A DNA stretch of 64,000 nt. It comes from Minisyncoccota bacterium. GTDB lineage: Bacteria; Patescibacteriota; Minisyncoccia; Phycocordibacterales; UBA1550. Each line of letters opens with the position of its first letter. Position 1 is the stretch's first letter. Shown here piece by piece: positions 1-61,448 of this stretch. Made by a program: the position numbers and the translations under genes. Under the pieces are notes generated by a model. It had not been told where the DNA came from and did no database searches. It saw only the letters and a program-made list of their open reading frames with translations. The DNA lies in contig JALNYL010000004.1 in NCBI GenBank assembly GCA_023229865.1, positions 17,773 to 81,772 on the forward strand, read 5' to 3'.

Positions 1-449
1 TTCTGAGCGAGTTCCTGGTAGTACGGTTGGGCTTCATGGAGCTCGGTGATGTAACACGGAAAGTGGATGTAGGTAGTTCCTTTCAGTGTGAGCATGGCGT
101 TTAGCCCGACCTCTCGAGTTGCATCGGTTCGTATGTCGGTTCGATAAATGATAGCCTTGCCTTTTGCGGCGAGGGCCAACCCGTATTCGACACACGTGCC
201 ACTGTCAGCGTCGGGACCATCCACGCAACCCACGTAGAGGTAAGTGCTCTCCTCTGCTGATTTTCGGCAGTGTTCTTTGATTCTTTCGAGTGCGGTGCGG
301 GGGAATGCTTCGATAAATTTTTTTGCATCGCGCTGAGGCAAAACGACACGATACCCCAAGTCCTTGAGATATCTTTCGAGATACAAGTTGTGAAGTCTTT
401 CACCTGCCCCGAATAATGGTGCCGCTAAATACAAGATTGTGTCTTTCAT
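1..449 (-). CDS. Nucleoside 2-deoxyribosyltransferase family protein (3' end runs off the window)
   Basis: Hand translation from ATG at 449 (SD AAGGAGAG): MKDTILYLAAPLFGAGERLHN...GYRVVLPQRD...DGPDADSGTCVEYGLA. It has the YLAxPxF, LPQ and DxDSGTxxExG motifs. Missing from the ORF track because it has no stop in the window. Confidence 0.85.
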   Translation of the reverse strand, partial: MKDTILYLAAPLFGAGERLHNLYLERYLKDLGYRVVLPQRDAKKFIEAFPRTALERIKEHCRKSAEESTYLYVGCVDGPDADSGTCVEYGLALAAKGKAIIYRTDIRTDATREVGLNAMLTLKGTTYIHFPCYITELHEAQPYYQELAQ

Positions 450-38462: not shown

Positions 38463-38536
38463 TGGAGTCCTGTACAAGAATCGAACTTATGACAGTGCTT
38501 TTCAGGGCACTTACGTTGCCACTCCGTCAACAGGCC
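38463..38536 (-). tRNA. Atypical tRNA-like gene (GAA in an 8-nt anticodon loop, encoded CCA)
   Basis: GGCCTGT/ACAGGAC acceptor with one mismatch, D-arm ACG-GAGTGGCAA-CGT, AGTGC-CCTGAAAA-GCACT, T-arm ATAAG-TTCGATT-CTTGT, ends TCCA. Confidence 0.7.
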
Positions 38537-49375: not shown

Positions 49376-49390
49376 ATTTCAGTTTAATTG

Positions 49391-49440
49391 TGCCGAGGAG
49401 AGGACTTGAACCTCCATGGGTCGCCCCGCCTTTTCTTAAT
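49391..49440 (-). pseudogene. 3' half of a split tRNA-Leu
   Basis: ..TTAAGAAAAGGCGGGGCGACCCATGGAGGTTCAAGTCCTCTCCTCGGCA; its acceptor pairs with GCCGAGG at 49690. Confidence 0.8.
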
Positions 49441-49545
49441 GCCTGTTTCGTGTTCGCTCAACAACGGTATTTGCGCATTAGCGCACCAGATTTAAATCAA
49501 AACAGTTTGATTTAAATTCACTCGGCAAGCATATCGTGTACAAAG

Positions 49546-49640: not shown

Positions 49641-49690
49641 TGCGTCTACAATTTCTGAATCAGCAGATTCACGTCTTGGACGACCTCGGC
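49641..49690 (-). pseudogene. 5' half of a split tRNA-Leu, interrupted by mini-element copy 3 (49655-49683)
   Basis: GCCGAGGT[27-nt insert]GAAATTGTAGACGCA. Confidence 0.78.
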
Positions 49691-49741: not shown

Positions 49742-49930
49742 AGGATTCGCCTCTCCTTTCAGTCGAGACTAATCTTGTGTGGTCACGAGTTACTAAGTCT
49801 GCTCAGATGATTACATCCTGTGCGGACTAAGTACTCTCGACCCCGGCTCGCCATTTTGTCTGCTGACAAAATATGGCTGCGCCTTGCACAAACGGAAAAC
49901 CTGCCGCAGGGCAGGTTTTCTTATCGTTTG
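49742..49930 (-). repeat. tRNA-3'-associated palindromic element downstream of tRNA-Lys
   Basis: Contains GAGTACTTA..TTAGTAACTCGTG (shared with the Trp element) and GTCTCGACTGAAAGGAGAGGC (shared with the Leu-TAA element). Confidence 0.75.
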
Positions 49931-50003
49931 TGCACCCAGTAGGATTCGAACCTACGACCGTCTCGTTAAGAGCGAGCTGCTCTACCAACTGAGCTATGGA
50001 TGC
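49931..50003 (-). tRNA. tRNA-Lys(CTT)
   Basis: GCATCCA/TGGGTGC acceptor, CTCG-CTCTTAA-CGAG. Confidence 0.93.
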
Positions 50004-50116
50004 ATCTATTCTTCATCAGTAACTTTTGAGATAAACCCTCTGGGCCTACCAAAACAGTTATGGATGCATGTACGAGATATTATACACAAATAATAGAAAA
50101 TGTGAAGTGGGGGAGG

Positions 50117-50272
50117 CGGGATGGGACTCGCCTCTCCTTGCAGTCGAGACCATCCATTTTAATAGTCGCGTTGCTCCTTTAAAATGGTGGGCCTTCGGTT
50201 CGGGTCCCATCTACTGGATACACAATAGCAAAAAAAAGACAGGGAAGGGACCCTGTCTTTTTTTTGCTATTG
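50117..50272 (-). repeat. tRNA-3'-associated palindromic element downstream of tRNA-Leu(TAA)
   Basis: Hairpin, inverted copy of the tRNA 3' end (GATGGGACCCGAACC), core, direct copy GAGTCCCATCCCG. Confidence 0.75.
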
Positions 50273-50353
50273 TGTCCGGGATGGGACTCGAACCCATAAG
50301 CCTTGCGGCGGGAAATTTTAAGTCTCCTGTGTATACCATTCCACCACCCGGAC
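50273..50353 (-). tRNA. tRNA-Leu(TAA)
   Basis: GTCCGGG/CCCGGAC acceptor, GGAGA-CTTAAAA-TTTCC. Confidence 0.93.
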
Positions 50354-50533
50354 ATGTTTATTTGTATTTTATTCCTGACGTTGGGTTTGTTCCGGCTTGC
50401 GATTCTGATTTTTGTACCTCAAAAATCATGTCGTAAGATTTCGAGCAACTAAGTTGCGAGAAATTTACGACCCGACGCAAGTGAAGCAGTTCACTTGCTC
50501 CCACGCCAAGAAAATCCTGGCGGATTTTCTTTG

Positions 50534-50605
50534 AGGCGTGGGCGAGAATCGAACTCGCGTATAGAGGTTTTGCAAACGACTGCCTTACCACTTGGCTACC
50601 ACGCC
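50534..50605 (-). tRNA. tRNA-Cys(GCA) with mismatched anticodon stem
   Basis: GGCGTGG/CCACGCC acceptor, U73, GTCGT-TTGCAAA-ACCTC. Confidence 0.88.
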
Positions 50606-50795
50606 TTTATTTATTATTTTAACCCCTTTGAAACTTCCTTGTAACACTTTTGACACAAGTGAAACTTCCTAACCATATCCTTTTTGTTTGGTGGACTCAA
50701 TAAGATTCCACCAAAGTCTTTGAGCTCATCTTTGCATTTATCACACTTTGGTTTAATGGCCATATTTTGTGTTTAACTCAATGCACCTGCCTATC

Positions 50796-51122
50796 TTATC
50801 CTTGTTGTCCCAACTCGTCAATTCTTTGGCGATTGCGCTCACCTTCATCAATCTTCACTTCGAGCACGGGAAGGTTCTTTAAGTGTGCGTGAGTCTTGAT
50901 GTATTCACGGAGTTCAGTGCGCTTGCGCTTTGCGAAATCAAGAGCTTTCTCTTGCTCGCTCGTAGGGAAGCAGGTGAAGTAAATGGTCCCGCGCTTGAAG
51001 TCAGGGGAGATCGTTGCGTCGGTGATGGTGATAAGGGAATTTTTCCCAGCTTCACGCGTAAAAAACTCAGCTGCAATAGAGCGGAGGAATGAACGCATTT
51101 TATCTTGTCGGGGGGTGGTCAT
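50796..51122 (-). CDS. rbfA: Ribosome-binding factor A
   Basis: LITIT...SPD....IY, LP.L....D; directly downstream of infB. Confidence 0.88.
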   Translation of the reverse strand: MTTPRQDKMRSFLRSIAAEFFTREAGKNSLITITDATISPDFKRGTIYFTCFPTSEQEKALDFAKRKRTELREYIKTHAHLKNLPVLEVKIDEGERNRQRIDELGQQG

Positions 51123-51139
51123 GGGGTAGTTGTTAGTTG

Positions 51140-52663
51140 TTATTTCTCACTCATTACAAATGCTTCGAGCACGTCTCCGCCAGCGATCTCCATTTTTGAT
51201 TCAACCATCATGCCGAATTCATTCCCTTCATCAACTTTCTTTGCTGCAATCTTTTGTGACTGAAGTCCTTCAATCTTGCCACGGCCAATCTCAACCTCGC
51301 GACGCATGATTTTTACCTGAGCGCCTACTTCGATAGTTCCGGTGAGGACTTTTCCTCCCACAACTTGCTTGTGTTTCGTCGCGCTGAATGTCTTGAGAAT
51401 CTTTGCTGTGCCTACAATGTCCTCGCCCATAGTCTTTGGGGTGCGACGATCGAGTTCCTCATTGAGCCATTCTGAAAGTTTGTAAATGATATCGAAAGTT
51501 TTGATCGTGATACCAAAACGCTCTGCGATGTCTTGTGCGCCACGCTCAACCTTGGTGTGGAAGCCGAGGATAATAGCACTGTCTGAGCCCGAGGCGAGCT
51601 TTGCGTCGTTTTCACCAATAGTTCCAACGCCCTTTGCGATGATTTTGATAGCGATACGCTCGCGCTCGATTTTGCCGAGTTCCTTCTCGAGTGCCTCAAG
51701 GGTTCCTGCTACGTCTGATTTCAAAACGATAGGTACAATGAGTGCATTGTCAGCGAGGGGGATAGTGCGAATGATTTTTGCAGCAGGATTCTTTGCGCGT
51801 GCCTCACGGATCTCGAGCTGTACCTTCTCGGCATCTTTCTTGTTTTCGTATGCACGGAATGTGGTGCCCACTGCGGGAAGTGAATCAAAGCCGGTGATCT
51901 GAATAGGGGACGAGAACGTCGCCTCAGAAACTTGCTTGCCGAGGAAATTCTCAATAGCGCGTACTGGTGACATGCTCTCTTCTGCGAGAATAAACATCCC
52001 TTTCTTGAGGGTGCCGTTGGTAATGATGAGCGTTGCTGAGGTGCCGCGCTTTGTGTCGATGTGTGACTCAACCACGATACCTTCTGCGGGGAGGGAAGTG
52101 TCGCCTTCGAGATTTTCCATCTCTGCGACGAGAAGCATCATATCGAGAAGCTCAGGAATACCAGTTCCAATTTTTGCAGAAATAGGTACAAAGGGCACAT
52201 CGCCACCGAAACCTTCGAGGTAGATCTCGTTCTCGGCGAGATTCTGCTTGGTGCGCTCGATGTTTGCGTTGGGCTTGTCGATTTTGTTGATAGCAACAAT
52301 GTAAGGGACGCCTGCTTCTTTGATGGCGCGGAGTGCCTCTTTAGTTTGTTCCTTTACGCCGTCTTCTGCAGACACGACGAGAATAGCAATGTCAGCCACA
52401 CCTGCTCCACGTGCACGCATCTTTGAAAACGCTTCGTGTCCTGGGGTGTCGAGGAAGGTGATACGCTCTGCGGTGCTCGTCTCCCGTGTCTTGTGATCAA
52501 CTTCGTACGCAGAAAGGTGCTGTGTGATACCACCTGCTTCGCCTGCAACAACGTTTGATTTGCGGATATAGTCAAGAAGGCTCGACTTGCCGTGGTCGAT
52601 GTGCCCCATGATAACGACGATGGGTGGACGGGGGATGATTTTTGGTTGAGCCTTTTTGGTCAT
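51140..52663 (-). CDS. infB: Translation initiation factor IF-2 (short form)
   Basis: [31 protein letters not shown]. Confidence 0.97.
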
Positions 52664-52681
52664 AGTATAAAAATAATTAGA

Positions 52682-53143
52682 TTAACGCGTTGCTTGCTTT
52701 ACGACCTTCTGTTCCTCTTCTGTCATTTCAAATTCCGAAGTGAAATTTTTGATAGGCTTTGCGAATACACTCATACGATCCCGCGCGTAAAGACTTGAGA
52801 CGACCGTGCCATCGCCTTCTTCAGAGAGGAGAGCGATTGCGAAGCTTTGGTTGCCCCCTTCACCAGTGCCTTTAAACGCATTGAAGCGAATAGTCTCAAC
52901 ACCCTGGATACTGCGCTTGATACGCTTTTCTGCATCAGTGAGATAGGTAGTGGTGTCGTTTTGGAACTTTTCGAGTGAGCGGATATCTTCAGTAAGAGCG
53001 ACAATAGTGTCTTCGAGGCTACGAGCATCTTTGCCAGCTACGAGCTTCTTCATGCGGCGTTCCAAGATAAAAACCCATACCGCGAGAAGGAGTGTGGTTA
53101 CAAGGAGAACAATAGTGAGAATTTGGGTGGGGCTCAAGGTCAT
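52682..53143 (-). CDS. DUF4446-like membrane-anchored protein
   Basis: RFNAF...GGNQSFAIALL...GDG.VVSSLY.RD. Confidence 0.8.
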   Translation of the reverse strand: MTLSPTQILTIVLLVTTLLLAVWVFILERRMKKLVAGKDARSLEDTIVALTEDIRSLEKFQNDTTTYLTDAEKRIKRSIQGVETIRFNAFKGTGEGGNQSFAIALLSEEGDGTVVSSLYARDRMSVFAKPIKNFTSEFEMTEEEQKVVKQATR

Positions 53144-53213
53144 ATTGGTTGAAACAGTACCATATTTTCAGGGATTTTGCAAAAGTGGTAAGGGCGGGCT
53201 ATGATTAATACAC

Positions 53214-54401
53214 ATGAAGAGAATTTACTTAGATAACGCGGCGGCGACGCCTGTGAGTGCTCTGGCGCAAAAGGCGGTTGCGGAAACTTCAAAAAAGTTT
53301 TTTGGGAATCCAAGTGCGATACACAAGGAGGGGAAGGAAGCACGCACCTCCTTGGAGTCGGCGCGCGCCATGGTCGCGGAGGCACTCGCTGCGCGTCCTG
53401 ATGAAATCATTTTTACCAGTGGAGCAACAGAGGCCAACAATATGGCGTTTATGGGTGTCGTGCAATCAGCGGGGATCCGTGGACTCGCACGGCCTCACAT
53501 TGTTATCTCTGCTATTGAGCATCCTTCTGTGCTTGAGACCGTGAGAGCTCTTGAGCGATATGGTATGCGTGTTGACTATTTGCCTGTCGATAGTCGAGGG
53601 CTCATCGATACGAAGGAGCTTCGCAAACTCATTACTCCTGAGACCGTGCTCGTATCGGTCATGTATGCCAACAATGAGATTGGCACAATAGAGCCTATTA
53701 CTGATATTGCACGTGAAGTTCGTCACGCACGCAAGATGAATAGTAGTGCATATCCATATTTTCATACCGATGCATCACAGGCGGCAAATTATCTCGATAT
53801 GAATGTGCTTCGTCTTGGTGTGGACCTCATGACCATCTCTTCGGGTAAGACGTATGGTCCTCGTGGTGTCGGCGCGCTCTTTGTGAAGCGCGGTGTCGAG
53901 ATGAGTCCACTCATGTATGGTGGGGAGCACGAGGCGGGTCGTCGTCCAGGGACTGAGTCGGTTGCGCTCGCGACTGGTTTTGCAACTGCGCTCGCGGAGG
54001 CGCGTAAGATGAGCGTGAAAGAGTCAAAGCGTGTGGCGAAACTCCGTGATGCACTTGCGGCGAAGGTTTTGAAGAAAATTTCAGGCTCATCAGTGAATGG
54101 TGATTTGGCACGTAGTCTTCCTAATATTTTGAATATTTCCTTTGAAGGTGTGGAGAGTGAAGCGCTCGTGCTCTACTTGGATGCCGCGGGGATTGCGGTG
54201 TCGGGGAAGAGCGCTTGTAAGAGTTCCAGTGAAGGACCGTCACATGTTATACTTGCGATAGATAAGGCTGGTAATGGTGAGGCAGGCGCAATTCGTTTTT
54301 CGCTCGGTCGCGAGACAAAAAGTGAAGATGTGACCCGTGTGGCAAATGAAGTGATTCGTTTAGTTCCGCTTCTTCGAACGATGCAAGAAAATAGTAATTA
54401 A
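53214..54401 (+). CDS. iscS: Cysteine desulfurase (IscS/NifS family)
   Basis: IYLDNAAATP, FTSGATEANN, EHPSV, HTDASQA, RPGTE, SAC. Confidence 0.9.
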   Translation: MKRIYLDNAAATPVSALAQKAVAETSKKFFGNPSAIHKEGKEARTSLESARAMVAEALAARPDEIIFTSGATEANNMAFMGVVQSAGIRGLARPHIVISAIEHPSVLETVRALERYGMRVDYLPVDSRGLIDTKELRKLITPETVLVSVMYANNEIGTIEPITDIAREVRHARKMNSSAYPYFHTDASQAANYLDMNVLRLGVDLMTISSGKTYGPRGVGALFVKRGVEMSPLMYGGEHEAGRRPGTESVALATGFATALAEARKMSVKESKRVAKLRDALAAKVLKKISGSSVNGDLARSLPNILNISFEGVESEALVLYLDAAGIAVSGKSACKSSSEGPSHVILAIDKAGNGEAGAIRFSLGRETKSEDVTRVANEVIRLVPLLRTMQENSN

Positions 54402-54413
54402 TTTTAAATATTT

Positions 54414-54986
54414 ATGTACGAAGCAAAAAATTTTGAACGACTCTTGGGGACCGAAGGATTTTCTGATGTGCTTTTGCGCAATCATTTTACGCTCTATGAG
54501 GGATATGTTTCGAATACCAATAAAGTAAGTGAGCTTTTAAAAACAGCAGAGACGGGGACACCTCTCTATAACGAAGTGAAGCGCCGCTTTGGTTGGGAAT
54601 GGAACGGTATGCGCCTTCATGAACTTTATTTTGGGAACATGATTAAGGGTGGAACTCCTCTCGAAACAAAAACCGCTCTTGCAAAAAAGATTGTTGAAGA
54701 TTTTGGATCGTTTGAAGCTTGGGAAAAAGATTTTCGTGCGACCGGGGCAATGCGTGGTATCGGCTGGGCCGTGCTTGCGCGCGACGGTGAGTCGGGGCGC
54801 CTCTTTAATGTATGGGTCAACGAGCATGATGGCGGGAATCTCGCAGGTGCAACAATCCTCCTTGTGATGGATGTGTTTGAGCATGCGTTTGCGCTCGACT
54901 ATGGTATTAAGCGCGCAGACTACATTAATGCCTTTTGGGCAGCTATTGATTGGGTAGTTGTTTCTCATAGATTTGCAGGGAAGTAA
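54414..54986 (+). CDS. sod: Fe/Mn superoxide dismutase family protein
   Basis: NHFTLYEGY, RLHELYF, MDVFEHAF. Confidence 0.88.
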   Translation: MYEAKNFERLLGTEGFSDVLLRNHFTLYEGYVSNTNKVSELLKTAETGTPLYNEVKRRFGWEWNGMRLHELYFGNMIKGGTPLETKTALAKKIVEDFGSFEAWEKDFRATGAMRGIGWAVLARDGESGRLFNVWVNEHDGGNLAGATILLVMDVFEHAFALDYGIKRADYINAFWAAIDWVVVSHRFAGK

Positions 54987-55010
54987 ACTCTAAGGTACTA
55001 TTGAGAATAT

Positions 55011-55844
55011 ATGGAGCACCTCACCAAAGCACAAATCGTTCTCCTCACACTCTTTGTTAGTTTTGTGTCGTCTATGGCGACGGGTATTGTCGTGGTTACT
55101 CTTATGGAACAGGCTTCAGCGCCGGTAAGTCAGACGATTACCAATGTGGTTGAGCGTACCATCGAAAAGATTACACCGACGATTATTGAAAAGCCGGGCA
55201 AGCAAGTCATTATAAAAGATGAAGATCTCGTTGTGTCTGCTATTGATCGCAATATTAAAAGTGTCGTTGCGTTTAGAATTGCGAGTGAAGGAGGAGACTC
55301 TCTTGTGTCTGGGGTAGGAACTATTGTTTCTCCTGAAGGGCTTGTTGTTACTGATAGAGGTAACTTTGGGGCAGGGGCGCTTACCACAACGATTGATGGC
55401 GTCCAGTATGTTCTCGAGGTTCTCTCAAATGAAAAGGGAAACACGCTTGGCATCGGGAAGCTCACTCCTGTTTCGGCGACATCAACACCAAAATTTGCTA
55501 CGGCAACATTGGGAAGCTCTGTTAATTTGCGCCTCGGGCAGACCGCGGTGGTTATCGGTGGTCGTGATGGGAAAACTATCACTACAGGACTTATTAATAA
55601 TCTTGAGACAAAGACCATCGTAGACGAGGCGACAAAAGCAGAAACGAAAGTCTTGGAGAATATCGGAGTTTCGTCTCGTTTTGCAGGCTCTTCAAATGGT
55701 GCTCCTATTATTACCCTCAGTGGTGATATTGTTGGATTTTTGAGCATCGATGAAATCATTGGTACTCAGAAGGGGGCACTCGTTACTGAAGCAAAAAGAC
55801 TTATCGAAGAAGTAAGCAAGATAGTTCCTGCTAAAAAACTCTAA
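55011..55844 (+). CDS. Trypsin-like (S1C/HtrA-like) membrane protein, catalytic residues degenerate
   Basis: GVGTIVSPEGLVVT, LRLGQTAVVIG, GAPIITLSGDIVG. Confidence 0.7.
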   Translation: MEHLTKAQIVLLTLFVSFVSSMATGIVVVTLMEQASAPVSQTITNVVERTIEKITPTIIEKPGKQVIIKDEDLVVSAIDRNIKSVVAFRIASEGGDSLVSGVGTIVSPEGLVVTDRGNFGAGALTTTIDGVQYVLEVLSNEKGNTLGIGKLTPVSATSTPKFATATLGSSVNLRLGQTAVVIGGRDGKTITTGLINNLETKTIVDEATKAETKVLENIGVSSRFAGSSNGAPIITLSGDIVGFLSIDEIIGTQKGALVTEAKRLIEEVSKIVPAKKL

Positions 55845-55940
55845 GATTTAAGCCTGCTTTGCGTCCTCGGGTCTATTGTTTGACAACATAGAACCACTAT
55901 TGTACATTGTCCCTGATTTTAGTATTTTAAAACAAACATT

Positions 55941-58628
55941 ATGCCCCCATTCAATAACTTCACAACCAAAGCACGCGATATTATTCGCCGCGCACATGAG
56001 CTTGCGGTGGAGCGTGGGCAGAACCACGTCAGCCCGATGCATCTTCTGACGTCTCTGATGCTTGACGATGAGAGTATTGTCGTTTCTATTCTTGAGCGTC
56101 TTGACGTCGACACAATGCAGCTCGCGGAGGATCTCCTCTCACTTATTGAGCCTACTACTACGCAAAATGTTGCGGCAGCTTCGTACCAACTCTATCTTAC
56201 TCCTGAACTCGGGCAGGTACTCGGCGAGGTTGCGCCACGCCTGGCGGCAGAAATGAAAGATGAGCAGATTTCTTGTGAGCATCTTTTCCTTGCGCTCTTT
56301 GATGTGGAAGGGCAGGCGCGTGAGTTCCTTGTTCGTCATGGCGTTGAGCGTGAAAATGTAATGCGCATTCTTGATGAATTTCGTACACAAAATATTACCG
56401 ATAGTACGCCAACAAAAAAACTTAAGTCAGTTTATAAGTACACGCGCAATCTCACCGCACTCGCGGCTCAGGACAAACTTGACCCTGTGATTGGCCGTGA
56501 CAATGAAGTGGGTCGCATCATTCAGATTCTTTCGCGTCGTACCAAGAACAATCCTATTCTTATAGGAGAAGCGGGAGTGGGGAAGACTGCGGTTGTTGAA
56601 GGCCTTGCTATTCGTATGGCGAAGGGCGACGTCCCTGAGTCTCTCAAAAACAAGGAACTCGTTTCTCTTGATCTCGGTTCTCTTATTGCGGGGACAAAGT
56701 ATCGCGGCGAGTTTGAGGATCGTTTGAAGAAGATTATGAAGGAAATTGAGCGTTCAGAGGGGAAGATCATTCTCTTTATTGATGAGATCCACACGATTGT
56801 GGGGGCGGGGGCAGCGGAAGGTTCAATGGACGCTTCAAATATGTTGAAGCCTGCGCTTGCGCGTGGGGAACTCCGCGCTATCGGAGCTACAACGCTTCGT
56901 GAATATCAGAAGCATATCGAGAAGGACCCTGCGCTTACGCGTCGTTTCCAGCCCGTACATGTCAACGAGCCATCAATCGAAGATGCAATCGCAATTCTTC
57001 GTGGCCTCAAGGAGAAATATGAACTTTTCCACGGTGTGCATATCACTGATGACGCTATTATGGCGGCAGTAAATCTCTCGAGTCGCTATATTACTGACCG
57101 TTTTCTGCCCGACAAAGCAGTAGACCTCATTGATGAGGCTGCATCGTCTCTCCGTATTTCACTCGAAAACAAACCGCCTGTTCTTGAAGATGCGCATCGT
57201 CGTATTATGCGTCTTGAGATTGAAAAAGAAGCGCTCAAGAAAGAAGCAACCCTTGGCGGAGAAGAAGGGAAGAACGCAAAAGCCCGCACAAAAAAGATTG
57301 ATAAAGAAATAGGCGACCTCCGCGAGAAGACACGCGAGATTGAACTCAAGTGGAAAAACGAGAAGGAGCTCGTGGTGGAGATTCGCGCTATTAAAAAAGA
57401 TATGGAAACTGCACGCCTCGAAGCAGAAACCGCAGAGATGAAGGCAGACCTCGCGCTTGCTGCGGAGATTCGCTATGGACGTATCCCCGCGTTTGAAAAG
57501 GATCTCGCGACAAAGATGGCGCGCCTCAAGAAGCTCCAGTCGTCACGTCGTATTTTGAAAGAGGAGGTGGTGGAGCATGATATTGCAGAAGTTGTTGCTC
57601 GTTGGACAGGGATCCCAGTGACAAAGATGCTTGAGGAAGAAGCAGGAAAGCTTGCGCATATAGAAGATGAACTCGAGAAGCGTGTAGTCGGGCAGCGTGA
57701 TGCTATCCAGAAGGTCTCTGATGCTATTAAACGCTCACGAGCGGGCATCGCGGACCCAAATCGCCCTATCGGCTCATTCCTCTTCTTGGGGCCGACAGGC
57801 GTCGGTAAGACTGAGCTTTCAAAGGCACTCGCGGAGTTTATGTTCAATGATGACAAAGCGCTTATCCGCGTAGATATGTCGGAGTATATGGAGAAGCATG
57901 CAGTGTCGAAGCTCATTGGTTCGCCTCCTGGATATGTCGGACACGAAGAAAGTGGCAACCTTACGGAAACGGTGCGTCATCGTCCATACTCAGTGCTCCT
58001 CTTTGATGAAGTTGAAAAAGCTCACCCAGAGGTTTTCAACATCCTTTTGCAGGTTCTTGATAATGGACAACTCACTGACTCAAAGGGGCGTGTGGTGAAC
58101 TTCAAAAATACGGTAATTATTTTGACGTCGAACATTGGCTCAGAACATATCGACAAGATGCAGGCCATTGGCTTTGGGACGCACTCGAGCGACAAGGCAG
58201 ATTATGCTGACGCAAAAGATCGCGTGATGGATTCGCTCAAGAATTTCTTCCGTCCTGAATTTTTGAATCGTCTTGATGAAATAATTCTCTTTGATATTTT
58301 GTCACCGGAAGTTATCCAGAATATCGTCGGTCTCCAGGTGGACATTGTGAAGAAGCGTCTTGCTGAAAAAGAAATTACGCTTAATGTCGCTCCTGACGTC
58401 CTCTCATATCTTGCAGAGAAGGGATATGATACGCACTACGGCGCACGCCCGCTCAAGCGTTTGATTCAGAATAAGATTCTTACGCCGATCGCATCACTTA
58501 TGATTTCTTCGGGGGTACTCAAGGGTGGTCGCGTCCTTGTCTCGACAGAAAAGGGGGAAGTGGCTATCCGTGTGGAGAAAAAAGCGGTTACTTCAAAGTC
58601 TCGCGCTCGTACAAAAGCGGCTGCGTAA
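55941..58628 (+). CDS. clpB: ClpB/ClpC-type AAA+ chaperone
   Basis: Clp-[18 protein letters not shown], long middle-domain coiled coil, GARPLKR. Confidence 0.9.
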
Positions 58629-58722
58629 TACATTAGAAAAAATAAAAAACTAACCTTCGCGCATGGGGGTTAGTTTTTTGTTTGTGTTGTGGAGCAGTAT
58701 ACTACTCTGTTATAATAAAGAG

Positions 58723-59097
58723 ATGAACACAAAAGAGAGGGGAGATCTCGCAGTTGGGCAGGCAATTAATTTTTTTATAAAAAATGGTTACGAAGTGTGC
58801 TTACCAATTGGTGATAAAAGAGATTATGATTTTGTTGTTGAGAAAAATGGAAAGCTTGAGAAAGTACAAGTAAAGTACGCAGGACTTTATGAGCGTAGTA
58901 AGACTTGCAAGGTAGGGTTGAGGATAACGGGAGGGAATCAGTCGTACTCATATGCTAAGAAGTACAAAAATGATTCCTTTGATTTATTGTTTGTGTATAC
59001 AGAAAAGGGCGAAATCTATGTAATTCCCTGGAAGAAGCTAGAAATTCGGAATGAGTTGTCAATTGAGACAAAAAAGTATAAGATGTACAAGTTCTAA
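58723..59097 (+). CDS. Group I intron-associated-type PD-(D/E)XK endonuclease (PDDEXK_5-like)
   Basis: TKERGDLA, GYEV..P.GD..DYD.VV......KVQVKY, Y....FD; AT-rich; stop 4 nt before tRNA-Tyr. Confidence 0.85.
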   Translation: MNTKERGDLAVGQAINFFIKNGYEVCLPIGDKRDYDFVVEKNGKLEKVQVKYAGLYERSKTCKVGLRITGGNQSYSYAKKYKNDSFDLLFVYTEKGEIYVIPWKKLEIRNELSIETKKYKMYKF

Positions 59098-59101
59098 AAA
59101 A

Positions 59102-59184
59102 GCGTCGGTACTCAAGTGGTCAACGAGGGGAGACTGTAAATCTCCTGACTTCGGTCTTCGAAAGTTCGAATCTTTCCCGGCGCA
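59102..59184 (+). tRNA. tRNA-Tyr(GTA)
   Basis: GCGTCGG/CCGGCGC acceptor, GGAGA-CTGTAAA-TCTCC, long variable arm. Confidence 0.94.
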
Positions 59185-59330
59185 CAAAAAAACAAAGCTC
59201 CCAAACTTTTTCAAGTTTGGGAGCTTTGTTTTTTTGGCGGGTACCCCAAACTTCCTCATTGACAAAAAGCACAACTTACGGCATATTATTGAAAGGTTCC
59301 TTCAATTAATCACAATTTTGGGAGGTAGTC

Positions 59331-59960
59331 ATGGGCGCAGAACAGGGAGAAAAACCGGTCTACGTAACACCAGGGTTTCTTAAGAATTTTTTAGGAATTC
59401 TTTCTGACCCCGACGCGAGCTTCATAGAGGTTGGGCGGATGTTGGTTACGCAGCCGTATTTAGTAGCGCATTTACTACGTGTAGCAAATATGCGCTGTGA
59501 AGATTGTGGCTCACTGGCGAAACCCAAGAGTGTCAATGGTATACTTATTAAACTCGGTATCTATAACATTGTTGAAGCGTGTAAGATTGCTGAAGATGTG
59601 CCACCTGCTGATTATGCAAGTTTTCGATCGAAAACAATCGATACATATTCGCTCGCGGTTGTGCTCTCGGAACTTGCAGAAAGAAGGCTTGGCCGTTTTG
59701 CGGCACCAGACTTTTTTCTCGTAGGACTTCTTTCAGTAGTGGTTCCTCAGAGTGATATTTTTTTGGATTTTTGTCATGAGGAGATCTTCGAGCATTTCAA
59801 GGGGACGCCCCAATTGGGTCATCCGACAATCCCTGAGGCTTTGACGCTTGTGGGGGATTTCAGGAGAAATGTCTCAACTGAGCATGCTGAAGTAATGGCG
59901 AAGTGGAAGGCTGCGCGTGAGCGAGCTCGTGAAGCAATCGACAATCTGACGAAATTCTAA
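59331..59960 (+). CDS. Degenerate HDOD-like domain protein
   Basis: PYLVAHLLRVAN...SV...LIKLG and FLVGLL resemble HDOD, but HD is absent; SD GGGAGGT. Confidence 0.6.
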   Translation: MGAEQGEKPVYVTPGFLKNFLGILSDPDASFIEVGRMLVTQPYLVAHLLRVANMRCEDCGSLAKPKSVNGILIKLGIYNIVEACKIAEDVPPADYASFRSKTIDTYSLAVVLSELAERRLGRFAAPDFFLVGLLSVVVPQSDIFLDFCHEEIFEHFKGTPQLGHPTIPEALTLVGDFRRNVSTEHAEVMAKWKAARERAREAIDNLTKF

Positions 59961-60091
59961 ATTAGAAAGAAGTATTCAAGAGGCGAACCCCCGTTCGCCT
60001 CTTTTTGTTTTTTGCAGATTGAATTTGACGTTGTGTTGACGATGCGCTAGTCTGAAAAACAGAAAGAAACTTTTAATGAGGGGAGGGAAAA

Positions 60092-60487
60092 ATGAACGGA
60101 GTCATACACGCCCTTCGAGATGTGAATCTTGAGCGGGGGAGAAGGAATGAGCAAAGGTTTCTCGATGCGATGAAGGCGACGCATTCTCCCGTGAAAATGC
60201 CGAAGTGGTTTATTCGCGGATATCACGCCTCAAAGAAAGAAGATCGTTTTGAGGGGAAAGATGCGGTGATTGAAACCACTGACGCGGGGAAACTCTTTAT
60301 CCAAATCAAGAGCTCGCAGGCGGGAGCACAGCGTTTCAAAGAGAAGAAGAAAGGGAAGCGCTATTCTTTTATTGGGGTTATTATCATTCGCGATGACGAC
60401 ACGATTGAGTCTATCCGCTTAAAAACGCGGAAAATACTCTCAAAACTTCGTCAGGATGTTTTTGCTGAACGCAGTAATATGGGGTAA
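60092..60487 (+). CDS. Small PD-(D/E)XK-like nuclease-fold protein
   Basis: G..NE..F, ED..EGKD.VI......FIQIKSS; promoter TTGACG-17-TAGTCT; SD GGGAGG. Confidence 0.6.
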   Translation: MNGVIHALRDVNLERGRRNEQRFLDAMKATHSPVKMPKWFIRGYHASKKEDRFEGKDAVIETTDAGKLFIQIKSSQAGAQRFKEKKKGKRYSFIGVIIIRDDDTIESIRLKTRKILSKLRQDVFAERSNMG

Positions 60488-60595
60488 TGAGGAGGGGTTT
60501 CGACCCCTCCTTTTTGTTGCCTGATGAATCTAAATATAAGGGGGATTCCTAATTAATTTGCCTTTTTTGCTCGGGTGTAGTAGGATAGAAAAACT

Positions 60596-60754
60596 ATGTC
60601 ACAGGACCAACTTATAAAACTCGCCTGCAAGAAGTGCAAGCGTCTCAATTATTGGACTCGCAAGAATAAGAAGCTTGTAGAGCGCAAGATTGAGCTCGAT
60701 AAATACTGCAATTCGTGCCGCGCTCATACAACGCACAAAGAGGCAAAGAAGTAG
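60596..60754 (+). CDS. rpmG: 50S ribosomal protein L33 (zinc-binding C+ form)
   Basis: MSQDQLIKLACKKCKRLNYWTRKNKKLVERKIELDKYCNSCRAHTTHKEAKK; below the ORF-track cutoff. Confidence 0.96.
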   Translation: MSQDQLIKLACKKCKRLNYWTRKNKKLVERKIELDKYCNSCRAHTTHKEAKK

Positions 60755-60817
60755 TAAATTTCAAAAGCCCCGAGAGGGGTTTTTGTTTTTTAGAGTAATT
60801 TTTGGTATACTCCCCGT

Positions 60818-60941
60818 ACGAGTAAATGAGCCAGGCCTATATCATCGGCAGTAGCCTTGATATAGACCCATCGCTCGGACGAAATGAAAGTAAGCTTTCG
60901 TTCCGCTCCTCATCCAGCAGGATGACTCTTGGAGTATGCTC
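60818..60941 (+). ncRNA. Putative structured leader RNA upstream of tRNA-Trp
   Basis: Follows TGG-TATACT; three hairpins enclosed by CGAGTA/TGCTCG. Confidence 0.4.
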
Positions 60942-61012
60942 GGGCCTATAGTTCAGTGGTAGAATATCGCACTCCAAACGCGCAGACCGAGGTTCGAGTC
61001 CTCGTGGGCCCG
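60942..61012 (+). tRNA. tRNA-Trp(CCA) with weakened anticodon stem
   Basis: GGGCCTA/TGGGCCC acceptor, TCGCA-CTCCAAA-CGCGC, CGAGG-TTCGAGT-CCTCG. Confidence 0.9.
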
Positions 61013-61378
61013 CAATGACAACGCCAGATACTTTCAGTATCTGGCGTTGTTGTCATTGCGAGGTCCACGAGGACTCGAAAACCGCAGGCGGGCACACAGT
61101 GTACTCACTGGGTCGCCGAGGTGGGGCCGCGAGTACTTATGAGCAAAGCGAATTAGTAACTCGGGGCCGCGTCCTCGTGCTTGATGTTTAACCCAAACAC
61201 GAAAGTGTTTGGGTTTTGTTGTTACTGCGAGGCCCACGAGGACTCGAAAAGCGGAGCCGGTATGCAAGACGAACGTAGTGAGTGCTTGTCGGCGAGCTGA
61301 GACCGCGAGTACTTAATAGATTTCGAGTGTAACGAAGAAATATATTTAGTAACTCGTGGGAGAGTCCTCGTGGGCCCA
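61013..61378 (+). repeat. Two tandem tRNA-3'-associated palindromic units
   Basis: Each unit: hairpin, inverted tRNA end (CCACGAGGACTCGAA), GCGAGTACTTA..TTAGTAACTCG core, direct copy GTCCTCGTG. Confidence 0.82.
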
Positions 61379-61448
61379 CCCCTATTGCACAAAAGGTTGT
61401 ATGTGGTAGCCTAAATATTAGATATTTAAACCGAAGGAGGGTAGTGTC

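Follow-up and report, generated by a model that had tools for sequence, protein, structure and literature searches.

Williams reportedly set out in 2002 that islands in tRNA and tmRNA genes use sublocations at the T-loop and at the 3' end. In Escherichia coli, the tandem units behind tRNA genes at tyrT (RtT) have a tRNA 3'-end copy as their last element. Patescibacteria have minimal genomes in which tRNA genes are mostly single-copy. We analyzed a window of 64,000 nucleotides from a Minisyncoccota bacterium, together with other genomes of its genus and phylum, for units of 150 to 200 nt that lie behind tRNA genes. As in tRNA- and tmRNA-gene islands and their integrase-less derivatives, the gene 3' end is present as a direct repeat and the gene is restored by what would be the incoming copy, while the old end and its terminator are left behind and insertions pile up in tandem. 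The units differ from such islands in their small size, in lacking an integrase, in having an antisense arm that extends 2 nt beyond the cut, and in that a single core family serves dozens of unrelated targets, 5S and protein-gene ends among them. With tyrT/RtT they share the tandem placement behind tRNA genes and the terminal copy of the tRNA 3' end, but they have an antisense arm and two registers. No Rfam family matches the units at the gathering score, RtT and ftsZ-DE included, and a match to ftsZ-DE was attributed to chance. We found no published description of the units, although motif tables in supplements could still list the family.

Integron attC sites and CALINs, as portrayed in excerpts of PMC4889954 and PMC5737381, resemble the units in combining low sequence conservation with a conserved fold, in a presumed action as single-stranded DNA, in forming ordered arrays with no integrase nearby, and in occasionally carrying cargo genes. 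The attC site of those excerpts is a single hairpin, whereas core A of the units is a three-way junction and, compared by eye, has neither the R/L boxes nor the conserved triplets of attC; unlike an integron cassette, a unit targets a gene end that it replaces itself. The parts of PMC6006769 on IS200/IS605 and REP/BIME-RAYT describe folded single-stranded DNA ends and a base-paired guide that sets the cut position, both reminiscent of the units. In contrast to what is described there, the units have a long target-specific guide and a target duplication, and have neither a link to Y1 genes nor a lagging-strand bias. According to the portion of PMC1470463 on cleavage, large serine recombinases produce 2-base 3' extensions; the unit junction has the same 2-base stagger, a likeness of geometry only. 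Large serine recombinases also target tRNA and tmRNA ends in the genus studied here.

Units in the window

Each unit begins with the gene 3' end, which is followed by a palindromic hairpin, an antisense arm, a core of two covarying hairpins, and the direct copy. The preliminary description of this DNA had named repeats behind tRNA-Trp, tRNA-Leu(TAA), and tRNA-Lys, and every one of them was recovered. The features are as follows.

60942..61013, forward strand: tRNA-Trp(CCA); T54 is at 60993, and the putative cut 55^56 falls between 60994 and 60995
60995-61167, forward strand: Trp unit 1, whole
61014..61058, forward strand: palindromic hairpin of Trp unit 1, type H1, common to other genomes of the genus
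61059..61079, forward strand: antisense arm of Trp unit 1 to tRNA positions 73..54; its final bases, 61078-61079, complement T54-T55
61080..61167, forward strand: core A of Trp unit 1, two hairpin arms in a three-way junction, with covariation (model match E 4.4e-16), beginning 85 nt past the cut
61168-61360, forward strand: Trp unit 2, whole, the second tandem unit
61168..61248, forward strand: shortened tRNA-end copy (56-67), hairpin of type H2, and antisense arm of Trp unit 2
61249..61360, forward strand: core A of Trp unit 2 (model match E 9.1e-19)
61361..61379, forward strand: distal direct copy of tRNA-Trp 56-74
50272..50353, reverse strand: tRNA-Leu(TAA); C56 is at 50290
50199..50271, reverse strand: 25-bp perfect hairpin and antisense arm to T54 of the Leu unit, the arm ending at 50199
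50131..50198, reverse strand: core B of the Leu unit
50117..50130, reverse strand: direct copy of tRNA-Leu 56-69
49930..50003, reverse strand: tRNA-Lys(CTT); C72 is at 49932, with a putative cut at 71^72
49885..49929, reverse strand: hairpin and 5-nt antisense arm to positions 74..70 of the Lys unit, in the second register
49782..49884, reverse strand: core A of the Lys unit (model match E 4.9e-23), 48 nt from the cut
49779..49781, reverse strand: direct copy of tRNA-Lys 72-74
49742..49769, reverse strand: right half of a core-B unit, including tRNA-Lys 56-63 as a direct copy
50430..50532, reverse strand: deletion remnant 3' of tRNA-Cys, with a hairpin, a partial arm bearing a side hairpin, and a broken core

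As had been described, GAGTACTTA..TTAGTAACTCG (core A) occurs twice behind tRNA-Trp and once behind tRNA-Lys, and GTCTCGACTGNAAGGAGAGG (core B) occurs at both Lys and Leu. The proposed layout, whose inverted copy had been called clear for Trp and Leu, holds at those two genes; the Lys unit has no inverted T-arm copy. The GAATCCT copy assigned to the Lys element is present, but it belongs to a separate core-B unit behind the core-A unit; this half unit is likely a relic of an older unit in the T-loop register. Hairpin order at Trp is consistent among genomes (H1 before H2 in three, H3 before H1 in one), and unit 2 is likely the older of the two Trp units. The distal direct copy at Trp is likely an older, displaced gene end. 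The tRNA-Cys remnant (50532-50430) is absent from the preliminary description; the corresponding unit is whole in the relatives L032 and L036.

Occurrence and cognate matching

In G000, the genome of this bacterium, inserts sit behind about half of the tRNA genes. When the inverted copies were compared with all 42 tRNA and tmRNA genes, the cognate gene ranked first for 20 of the 42, where about one is expected by chance, which bears out the claim that the flanks match their own tRNA. Across G000 and its relatives, an inverted T-loop copy is present at 109 of 205 tRNA genes; at the same 109 sites a non-cognate tRNA fits in a mean of only 17.6. The preliminary description named cores that occur apart from tRNAs as a refutation of its reading, and this holds in part: a minority of cores adjoin tmRNA, 5S, or protein-gene ends, although the arms there always match that gene as well. 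A few units flank cargo ORFs on both sides (L102, L295, and L309).

Surveys with core A give lower bounds and cover core A only. Of 400 other genomes in the phylum, none matched a strict core pattern, a looser one matched 25 of 28 genomes in the genus, and a covariance model of core A was positive in 5 of 150 genomes, with 24 candidates scored in each. One core pattern had no matches in viral contigs, and of six matches to a looser pattern, the four listed look like chance; a cassette-end motif matched eight viral loci, by motif alone.

Junctions and spacing

The units fall into two registers, tRNA 55^56 and 71^72, in both of which the arm reaches exactly 2 nt beyond the start of the direct copy. 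Registers were called from the right flank alone for 265 cores, 116 of which were not scorable. The arm ends in 2 nt complementary to the dinucleotide just 5' of the cut in 94 of 99 units at 55^56 and in 44 of 50 at 71^72, the latter set spanning ten different target dinucleotides (permutation mean 7.7, maximum 18). Complementarity extends to one further base in 0 of 99 and 1 of 50 units, respectively. Judged by eye, the rule also applies at five protein-gene ends, which their C-termini suggest to be those of rplL, topA, rpsI, ftsZ, and rplB.

The distance from cut to core is about 86 nt, falling within 82 to 89 nt in 62 of 76 T-loop units that have no side hairpin. Arms have conserved bulges and also side hairpins whose distance is fixed: the side hairpins lie 10 to 12 nt from where the arm ends in 45 of 50 and in 27 of 27 cases. 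A spacing of about 85 nt is kept in distant lineages whose arm pairs over just some 8 nt, and unit lengths have no helical periodicity. The core ends in AC regardless of target, and its final two bases, unlike those of a standard serine-recombinase site, do not match the target dinucleotide; the crossover may, however, lie immediately 3' of the cut.

Fold of the core

The fold of core A has double-sided changes at 20 of 29 pairs and pairs in 94% of cells, compared with 28% to 39% in slid controls. GNA triloops, which are DNA-type loops, cap 137 of 520 core tips versus 12 of 318 post-tRNA hairpins, while GNRA or UNCG loops occur in 11 of 520 and 40 of 318, respectively; the core loops thus look DNA-like. 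Arm interiors contain 52 A.C mismatches versus 6 G.T, many of which may be a single inherited mismatch, and a purely sense-strand fold does not accord with this. A first test of substitution strand gave 30 versus 18, uninformative owing to a poor gapped alignment.

Gain, loss, and the origin of gene ends

Units are patchy among relatives and stacked at some genes. Among 21 genomes of the genus, tRNA-Trp is followed by arms in 15 and by none in 6, with zero to three arms each, and an empty/filled pair of loci shows the target doubled from position 56 through the hairpin. In all 15 arm-bearing genomes the T-loop allele of the Trp arm equals that of the resident tRNA. These gains and losses agree with the earlier proposal of a non-autonomous element with cognate arms. 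No circle joint at the Trp locus was found in the contigs of three DNA runs; one run contig omits Trp unit 2 (61179 to 61380), although its likeness of 85% leaves room for an origin in another organism.

At some protein genes the proximal and distal copies have diverged as functional alleles. All 12 differences between the two ftsZ copies are synonymous (an outcome reached in 0 of 20,000 neutral simulations), as are 6 of 9 in topA (P = 0.0017) and 3 of 3 in rpsI (P = 0.017). The test was significant at these three of seven protein-gene loci, and not at rplL and three short rplB cases. Because the divergence is mostly synonymous, the unit likely brings its gene end along rather than having it copied anew each time it inserts. 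Carried alleles are not apparent at tRNA loci, since 78 of 137 distal copies are identical across positions 62-74 and substitutions keep pairing in 19 of 75 cases against 22 expected, no more than chance. A rare variant in G413 is common to both copies, which templating would also explain. The earlier idea that every insertion is templated on the T-loop does not accord with the second register at 71^72, the non-tRNA targets, and the divergent functional alleles at protein genes.

Model of insertion and alternatives

We lean, with restrained confidence, towards a model in which these gene-less inserts move as folded single-stranded DNA cassettes that are integrated by a recombinase supplied in trans. 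The mobile form would be a dumbbell circle of gene end, terminator-like hairpin, arm, and core. Its arm would pair across the target cut, over 2 nt on the 5' side and 5 to 20 nt on the 3' side, and a single strand exchange, resolved by replication or repair, would join the 5' part of the resident gene to the incoming end and the core to the old end. The gene would stay intact, the newest unit would lie nearest to it, and the old end would decay behind the core. A new target would arise only seldom, through the joining of a core at a point 2 nt within the base of a hairpin that extends into a gene end. As to the enzyme, serine or tyrosine recombinases would be likelier candidates than HUH nucleases and reverse transcriptases. 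If this best explanation is true, it would be an undescribed way for essential gene ends to receive insertions safely and to exchange alleles. Exact substrates follow from the junction rules (cut sites, 2-nt reach, stem length, and core fold), and the enzyme is therefore directly screenable. Considerably more tentative is the suggestion of DNA-guided programmable recombination, in which a folded single-stranded core scaffold that its cis arm directs to any gene end, with a 2-nt reach and a ruler of about 86 nt, might swap essential-gene ends between Patescibacteria genomes and leave the genes undisrupted. The cargo form might then act as integron-like gene capture at tRNA genes, with a recombinase from the host or an island; such a DNA-arm-aimed recombinase, if real, would be a candidate programmable insertion tool.

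Construction on site is an improbable alternative. A nick or break would be capped by the core, and fold-back synthesis from the terminator hairpin, by a DNA polymerase or reverse transcriptase, would yield a direct-inverted-direct triplication. This scheme is close to the templating idea of the preliminary description. It would account for the doubled resident hairpin of the empty/filled pair and for Trp arms whose T-loop allele equals the resident one in 15 of 15 genomes, and templating must have occurred when each lineage was founded. The same hairpin recurs after the core in 6 of 137 cases (the 32 nt after the distal copy resembling the 32 nt after the tRNA), and also at L011 and L013, but the hairpins after the two copies differ in the other 131. 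Synonymous divergence at ftsZ, topA, and rpsI argues against construction on site, as do the bulges and fixed-distance side hairpins of the arms. Reverse transcriptase is missing from G000; of 29 genomes in the genus, 7 have one, and the flanks examined held neither core nor unit.

Somewhat less probable is a role in RNA, with trailer switches that sequester the tRNA end, when the arm pairs with the tRNA, or release it, when the arm pairs with the distal copy and the core folds, or a core that is a processing or splicing signal, and gene conversion keeping the arms matched. The units are always in the sense orientation of the gene and behind abundant RNAs, a G.T pair is conserved in 262 of 265 cores, and no replication-strand bias is apparent (13:6 versus 12:10, a small sample in motif-based classes). 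Refolding of the pre-tRNA by the antisense arm is possible on paper, in that the predicted RNA fold loses the cloverleaf, and single-stranded DNA and RNA motifs are hard to distinguish computationally, as stated in an excerpt of PMC5737381. Such a role is difficult to reconcile with units that are absent at 6 of 21 orthologous Trp loci and stacked at others, and with loops that are not RNA-typical. A T-rich tract trails 266 of 318 post-tRNA hairpins, so transcription may end before the arm, and the neutral decay of distal tRNA copies speaks against splicing to them.

There is a slim chance that no dedicated enzyme is involved. The units would then spread through natural transformation, with the host's homologous recombination acting on the gene body and the short distal copy, and would persist as passengers of neutral effect or as attachment sites, decoy or alternative, for the abundant recombinase islands that target tRNA genes. 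In favor of this reading, cores are mosaic between loci, and serine-recombinase islands converge on 21 tRNA and tmRNA ends at the loci examined and are present in 23 of 29 genomes of the genus. The exact 2-nt rule at many targets and the length ruler would be left unexplained, and with the recombinase islands observed, integration is into the gene and displaces the unit downstream, for which reason the decoy attachment sites proposed earlier are not favored. Amplification of REP/BIME-like repeats by a resident RAYT/TnpA-like HUH nuclease is very improbable: of 29 genomes in the genus, 26 carry Y1 HUH genes, and HUH enzymes use hairpins and short guides on single-stranded DNA in the part of PMC6006769 that treats them, but these genes are flanked by palindromes other than the core, Y1 was not found in 4 of 5 distant core-A genomes though present in 71 of 151 sampled, and a lagging-strand bias is absent.

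Candidate enzymes and recombinase islands

No enzyme was found linked to the units in cis. There is no ORF inside the units, and among 261 ORFs the sole protein family to recur next to units of many tRNA types is a neighboring housekeeping gene. The core model matched just 2 of 50 recombinase or nuclease loci, and no core lies near the small GIY-YIG genes of G000. IS110 recombinases are absent from G000 and present in 2 of 29 genomes of the genus. Like reverse transcriptase and HUH/RAYT enzymes, they are a poor fit. G000 encodes one Xer-like tyrosine recombinase and no evident integron integrase. Serine recombinases are present in 23 of 29 genomes of the genus, in 4 of 5 distant core positives, and in 86 of 151 background genomes, so that presence is not discriminating. 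Island ends at tmRNA and tRNA-Asn are unlike the core. As a lead only, in an interval that was picked after the data were seen and that includes three homologous islands, the word TCGA lies 78 to 112 nt past the cut in 7 of 21 island trailers, compared with 2.6 expected (P = 0.008).

Distribution of the repeat units

The preliminary description placed a family of related repeats behind tRNA genes of the window, and the repeats were found at the positions it gave. An Rfam search of the window returned tRNAs, of which it has seven genes, and no other family. Read in the sense of the gene, each unit runs from the gene 3' end through a palindromic hairpin, an antisense arm and a core to a direct copy of the gene end.

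Units behind tRNA genes of the window
tRNA-Trp: two units with core A
tRNA-Leu(TAA): one unit with core B
tRNA-Lys: a core-A unit, then half of a core-B unit
tRNA-Cys: a deleted remnant of a unit

With the 42 tRNA/tmRNA genes of the 950-kb genome holding the window (G000) ranked, the best inverted match was the cognate gene for 20 of them. A covariance-model search of this genome located core A at 17 places, all beside tRNA genes, a tRNA 3' fragment or a 5S end. Core A is common within the genus (25 of the 28 other genomes) and patchy across the phylum (at least 5 of 150 genomes); genomes in the phylum sample measure 0.4-2.1 Mb. Two further searches yielded at least 124 and at least 121 stretches with the core, and the named records sharing it are mostly Patescibacteria (Paceibacteria, Yonathbacteria, Kaiserbacteria, Saccharibacteria, and others). 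The unit family is real and widespread in this lineage.

Junctions and geometry

The antisense arm ends two bases 5' of the start of the direct copy in 94 of 99 units at tRNA position 55^56 (T-loop) and in 44 of 50 at 71^72 (second register). The register was assigned from the right flank alone, and of 265 cores, those with no tRNA within 170 nt (83), no clear register (32) or an unlocated T-loop (1) were left out. Which two bases these are depends on the target in second-register units, where permutation gave a mean of 7.7 and a maximum of 18 matches. Pairing is nearly absent at the next base (0/99 and 1/50, respectively). The same rule was seen by eye at the ends of protein genes that we take, from their C-termini, to be rplL, topA, rpsI, ftsZ, and rplB. 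Since the second register, to which the tRNA-Lys unit of the window belongs, and protein-gene ends obey one rule, the element does not depend on a T-loop, contrary to what had been proposed for its insertion.

Among T-loop units lacking a side hairpin, 62 of 76 have 82-89 nt between cut and core; among second-register units of this simple form the spacing is 48 nt in 13 of 21. Where the optional side hairpin occurs, it lies 10-12 nt from the arm end (72 of 77 cases). The spacing of approximately 85 nt is retained in distant lineages, though arm pairing there spans only about 8 nt.

Mobility and allele divergence

Units are gained and lost. Among 21 genomes, the tRNA-Trp locus carries one to three arms in 15 and none in 6, and a comparison of two related genomes shows a filled site in G417 and its empty counterpart in G407. 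The types of post-tRNA hairpin at this locus recur between genomes in consistent order, H1 preceding H2 in the window. The most economical reading, and on balance a probable one, is that of a non-autonomous cassette that would move as a folded single-stranded DNA (ssDNA) dumbbell, presumably a circle, and integrate through a single strand exchange that its own arm directs.

Over the 12 residues that both ftsZ copies encode identically, the proximal and distal versions differ 12 times, each time within a synonymous codon. The copies at topA and rpsI point the same way; those at rplL and at three rplB loci give too little sequence for this comparison. Both copies were working gene ends, because a dead copy of a resident gene would not diverge synonymously. 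To judge from these alleles, the proximal end likely arrived with the unit or swaps with the distal end through excision. Fold-back templated anew at every insertion, the alternative on which this divergence bears, is unlikely. At tRNA loci most distal copies are identical or decaying neutrally, and allele comparison gives no signal there. The hairpin behind the distal copy is usually unlike that behind the tRNA (131 of 137), as expected if the unit carries its own hairpin.

A few units enclose single ORFs. At one locus (L295), units and cassettes form an array at tRNA-Tyr ends. It is integron-like: along its whole length, on the minus strand, 3' fragments of tRNA-Tyr that carry units are interleaved with single ORFs in reverse orientation, and the ORFs are flanked by an end motif of a second type.

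Fold of the core

Covariation in core A is strong, with double-sided changes in 20 of 29 pairs (0 of 500 shuffles, and a collapse of the signal in slid controls; per-position counts over 265 cores), and the covarying fold consists of two hairpins on a stem of arm and gene end. Tips rich in GNA triloops point to ssDNA. Core A tips are of this kind (137 GNA triloops versus 11 GNRA/UNCG tetraloops, of 520), whereas the post-tRNA hairpins show the reverse (12 versus 40, of 318); against this ssDNA-like pattern, A.C mismatches outnumber G.T in arm interiors (52 versus 6), and ssDNA and RNA motifs are described as difficult to separate (PMC5737381). A device acting at the RNA level appears rather improbable given these tips.

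Candidate enzymes

No enzyme linked in cis to units was found in unit neighbourhoods or at recombinase and nuclease loci. G000 has neither a reverse transcriptase nor an IS110 recombinase, and reverse transcriptases of relatives have no unit within the flanks read. Large serine recombinases are common in the genus, where they converge on the 3' ends of tRNA/tmRNA genes, and their cleavage leaves 2-base 3' extensions (PMC1470463). They are, however, also widespread in the phylum (86 of 151 genomes), the ends of their islands are unlike the core, and the core does not appear to share the target dinucleotide. G000 has one Xer-like tyrosine recombinase. Unit orientation tracks the gene, not replication. 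Spread without an enzyme, or service as decoy sites, is improbable beside the two-base rule. That a RAYT drives the repeat is very improbable: Y1 HUH genes carry palindromes of their own and were not found in four of five distant core-A genomes. Under the dumbbell reading, an enzyme would presumably perform the exchange.

Several families of Y1 (RAYT-like) genes of about 225 aa, each with its own short flanking palindromic repeat, occur at L069-L083 and, in G000, at C31:38470 and C40:24193; one of them lies within a core-B-like unit at tRNA-Gln in L075. At L451-L500, serine-recombinase ORFs converge on the 3' ends of 21 distinct tRNA/tmRNA genes, often overlapping them; in many cases the word GGTTCGA recurs 87-151 nt downstream. 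In G000, a foreign island of about 29 kb (C32:1-29600 and the end of C31) that includes a large serine recombinase ends at a tRNA-Gly(CCC) 3' fragment, and the unit behind this fragment is the same as that behind the intact tRNA on C31.

Comparison with known systems

The outcome of insertion resembles that of a tRNA-integrating island, the folded sites that can be stacked recall an integron cassette, and the presumed use of guide bases recalls IS200/IS605 elements; the unit fails a defining test of each. No Rfam family matches it and no paper describing it was found in the literature searched; the family is apparently undescribed in print. It is possible, though doubtful, that the arm is a programmable guide, in which case the system would be categorically new. 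The mechanism is now open to testing.

Other repeats and tRNA-like sequences

Further features of the window and of G000
window 49390-49442 (-): 53-nt, 83% copy of the tRNA-Leu(TAG) 3' half from the variable arm onward, between both Leu genes, without arm or core
window 49656-49681 (-): short dispersed repeat of CCAAGACGTGAATCTGCTGATTCAG type, with 9 copies in G000, 3 of them close to tRNAs; in relatives also inserted within cores
window 38466-38536 (-): weak Rfam tRNA match (35 bits) absent from the ARAGORN calls, with a tRNA-like T arm and an odd D arm, overlapping an opposite-strand ORF start
G000 C34:8651-8815 (-): tRNA-Ala(CGC), to which ARAGORN assigns a 67-nt intron; downstream lies a 5S rRNA with a degenerate unit behind it
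G000 C33:32452-33006: convergent tRNA-Arg(TCT) and tRNA-Val(TAC) with units back to back, including core types beyond A and B
window 59185-59241 (+): 24-bp perfect palindrome behind tRNA-Tyr, reaching a few bases into the tRNA end, without a core; the tRNA-Tyr locus of relatives has full units
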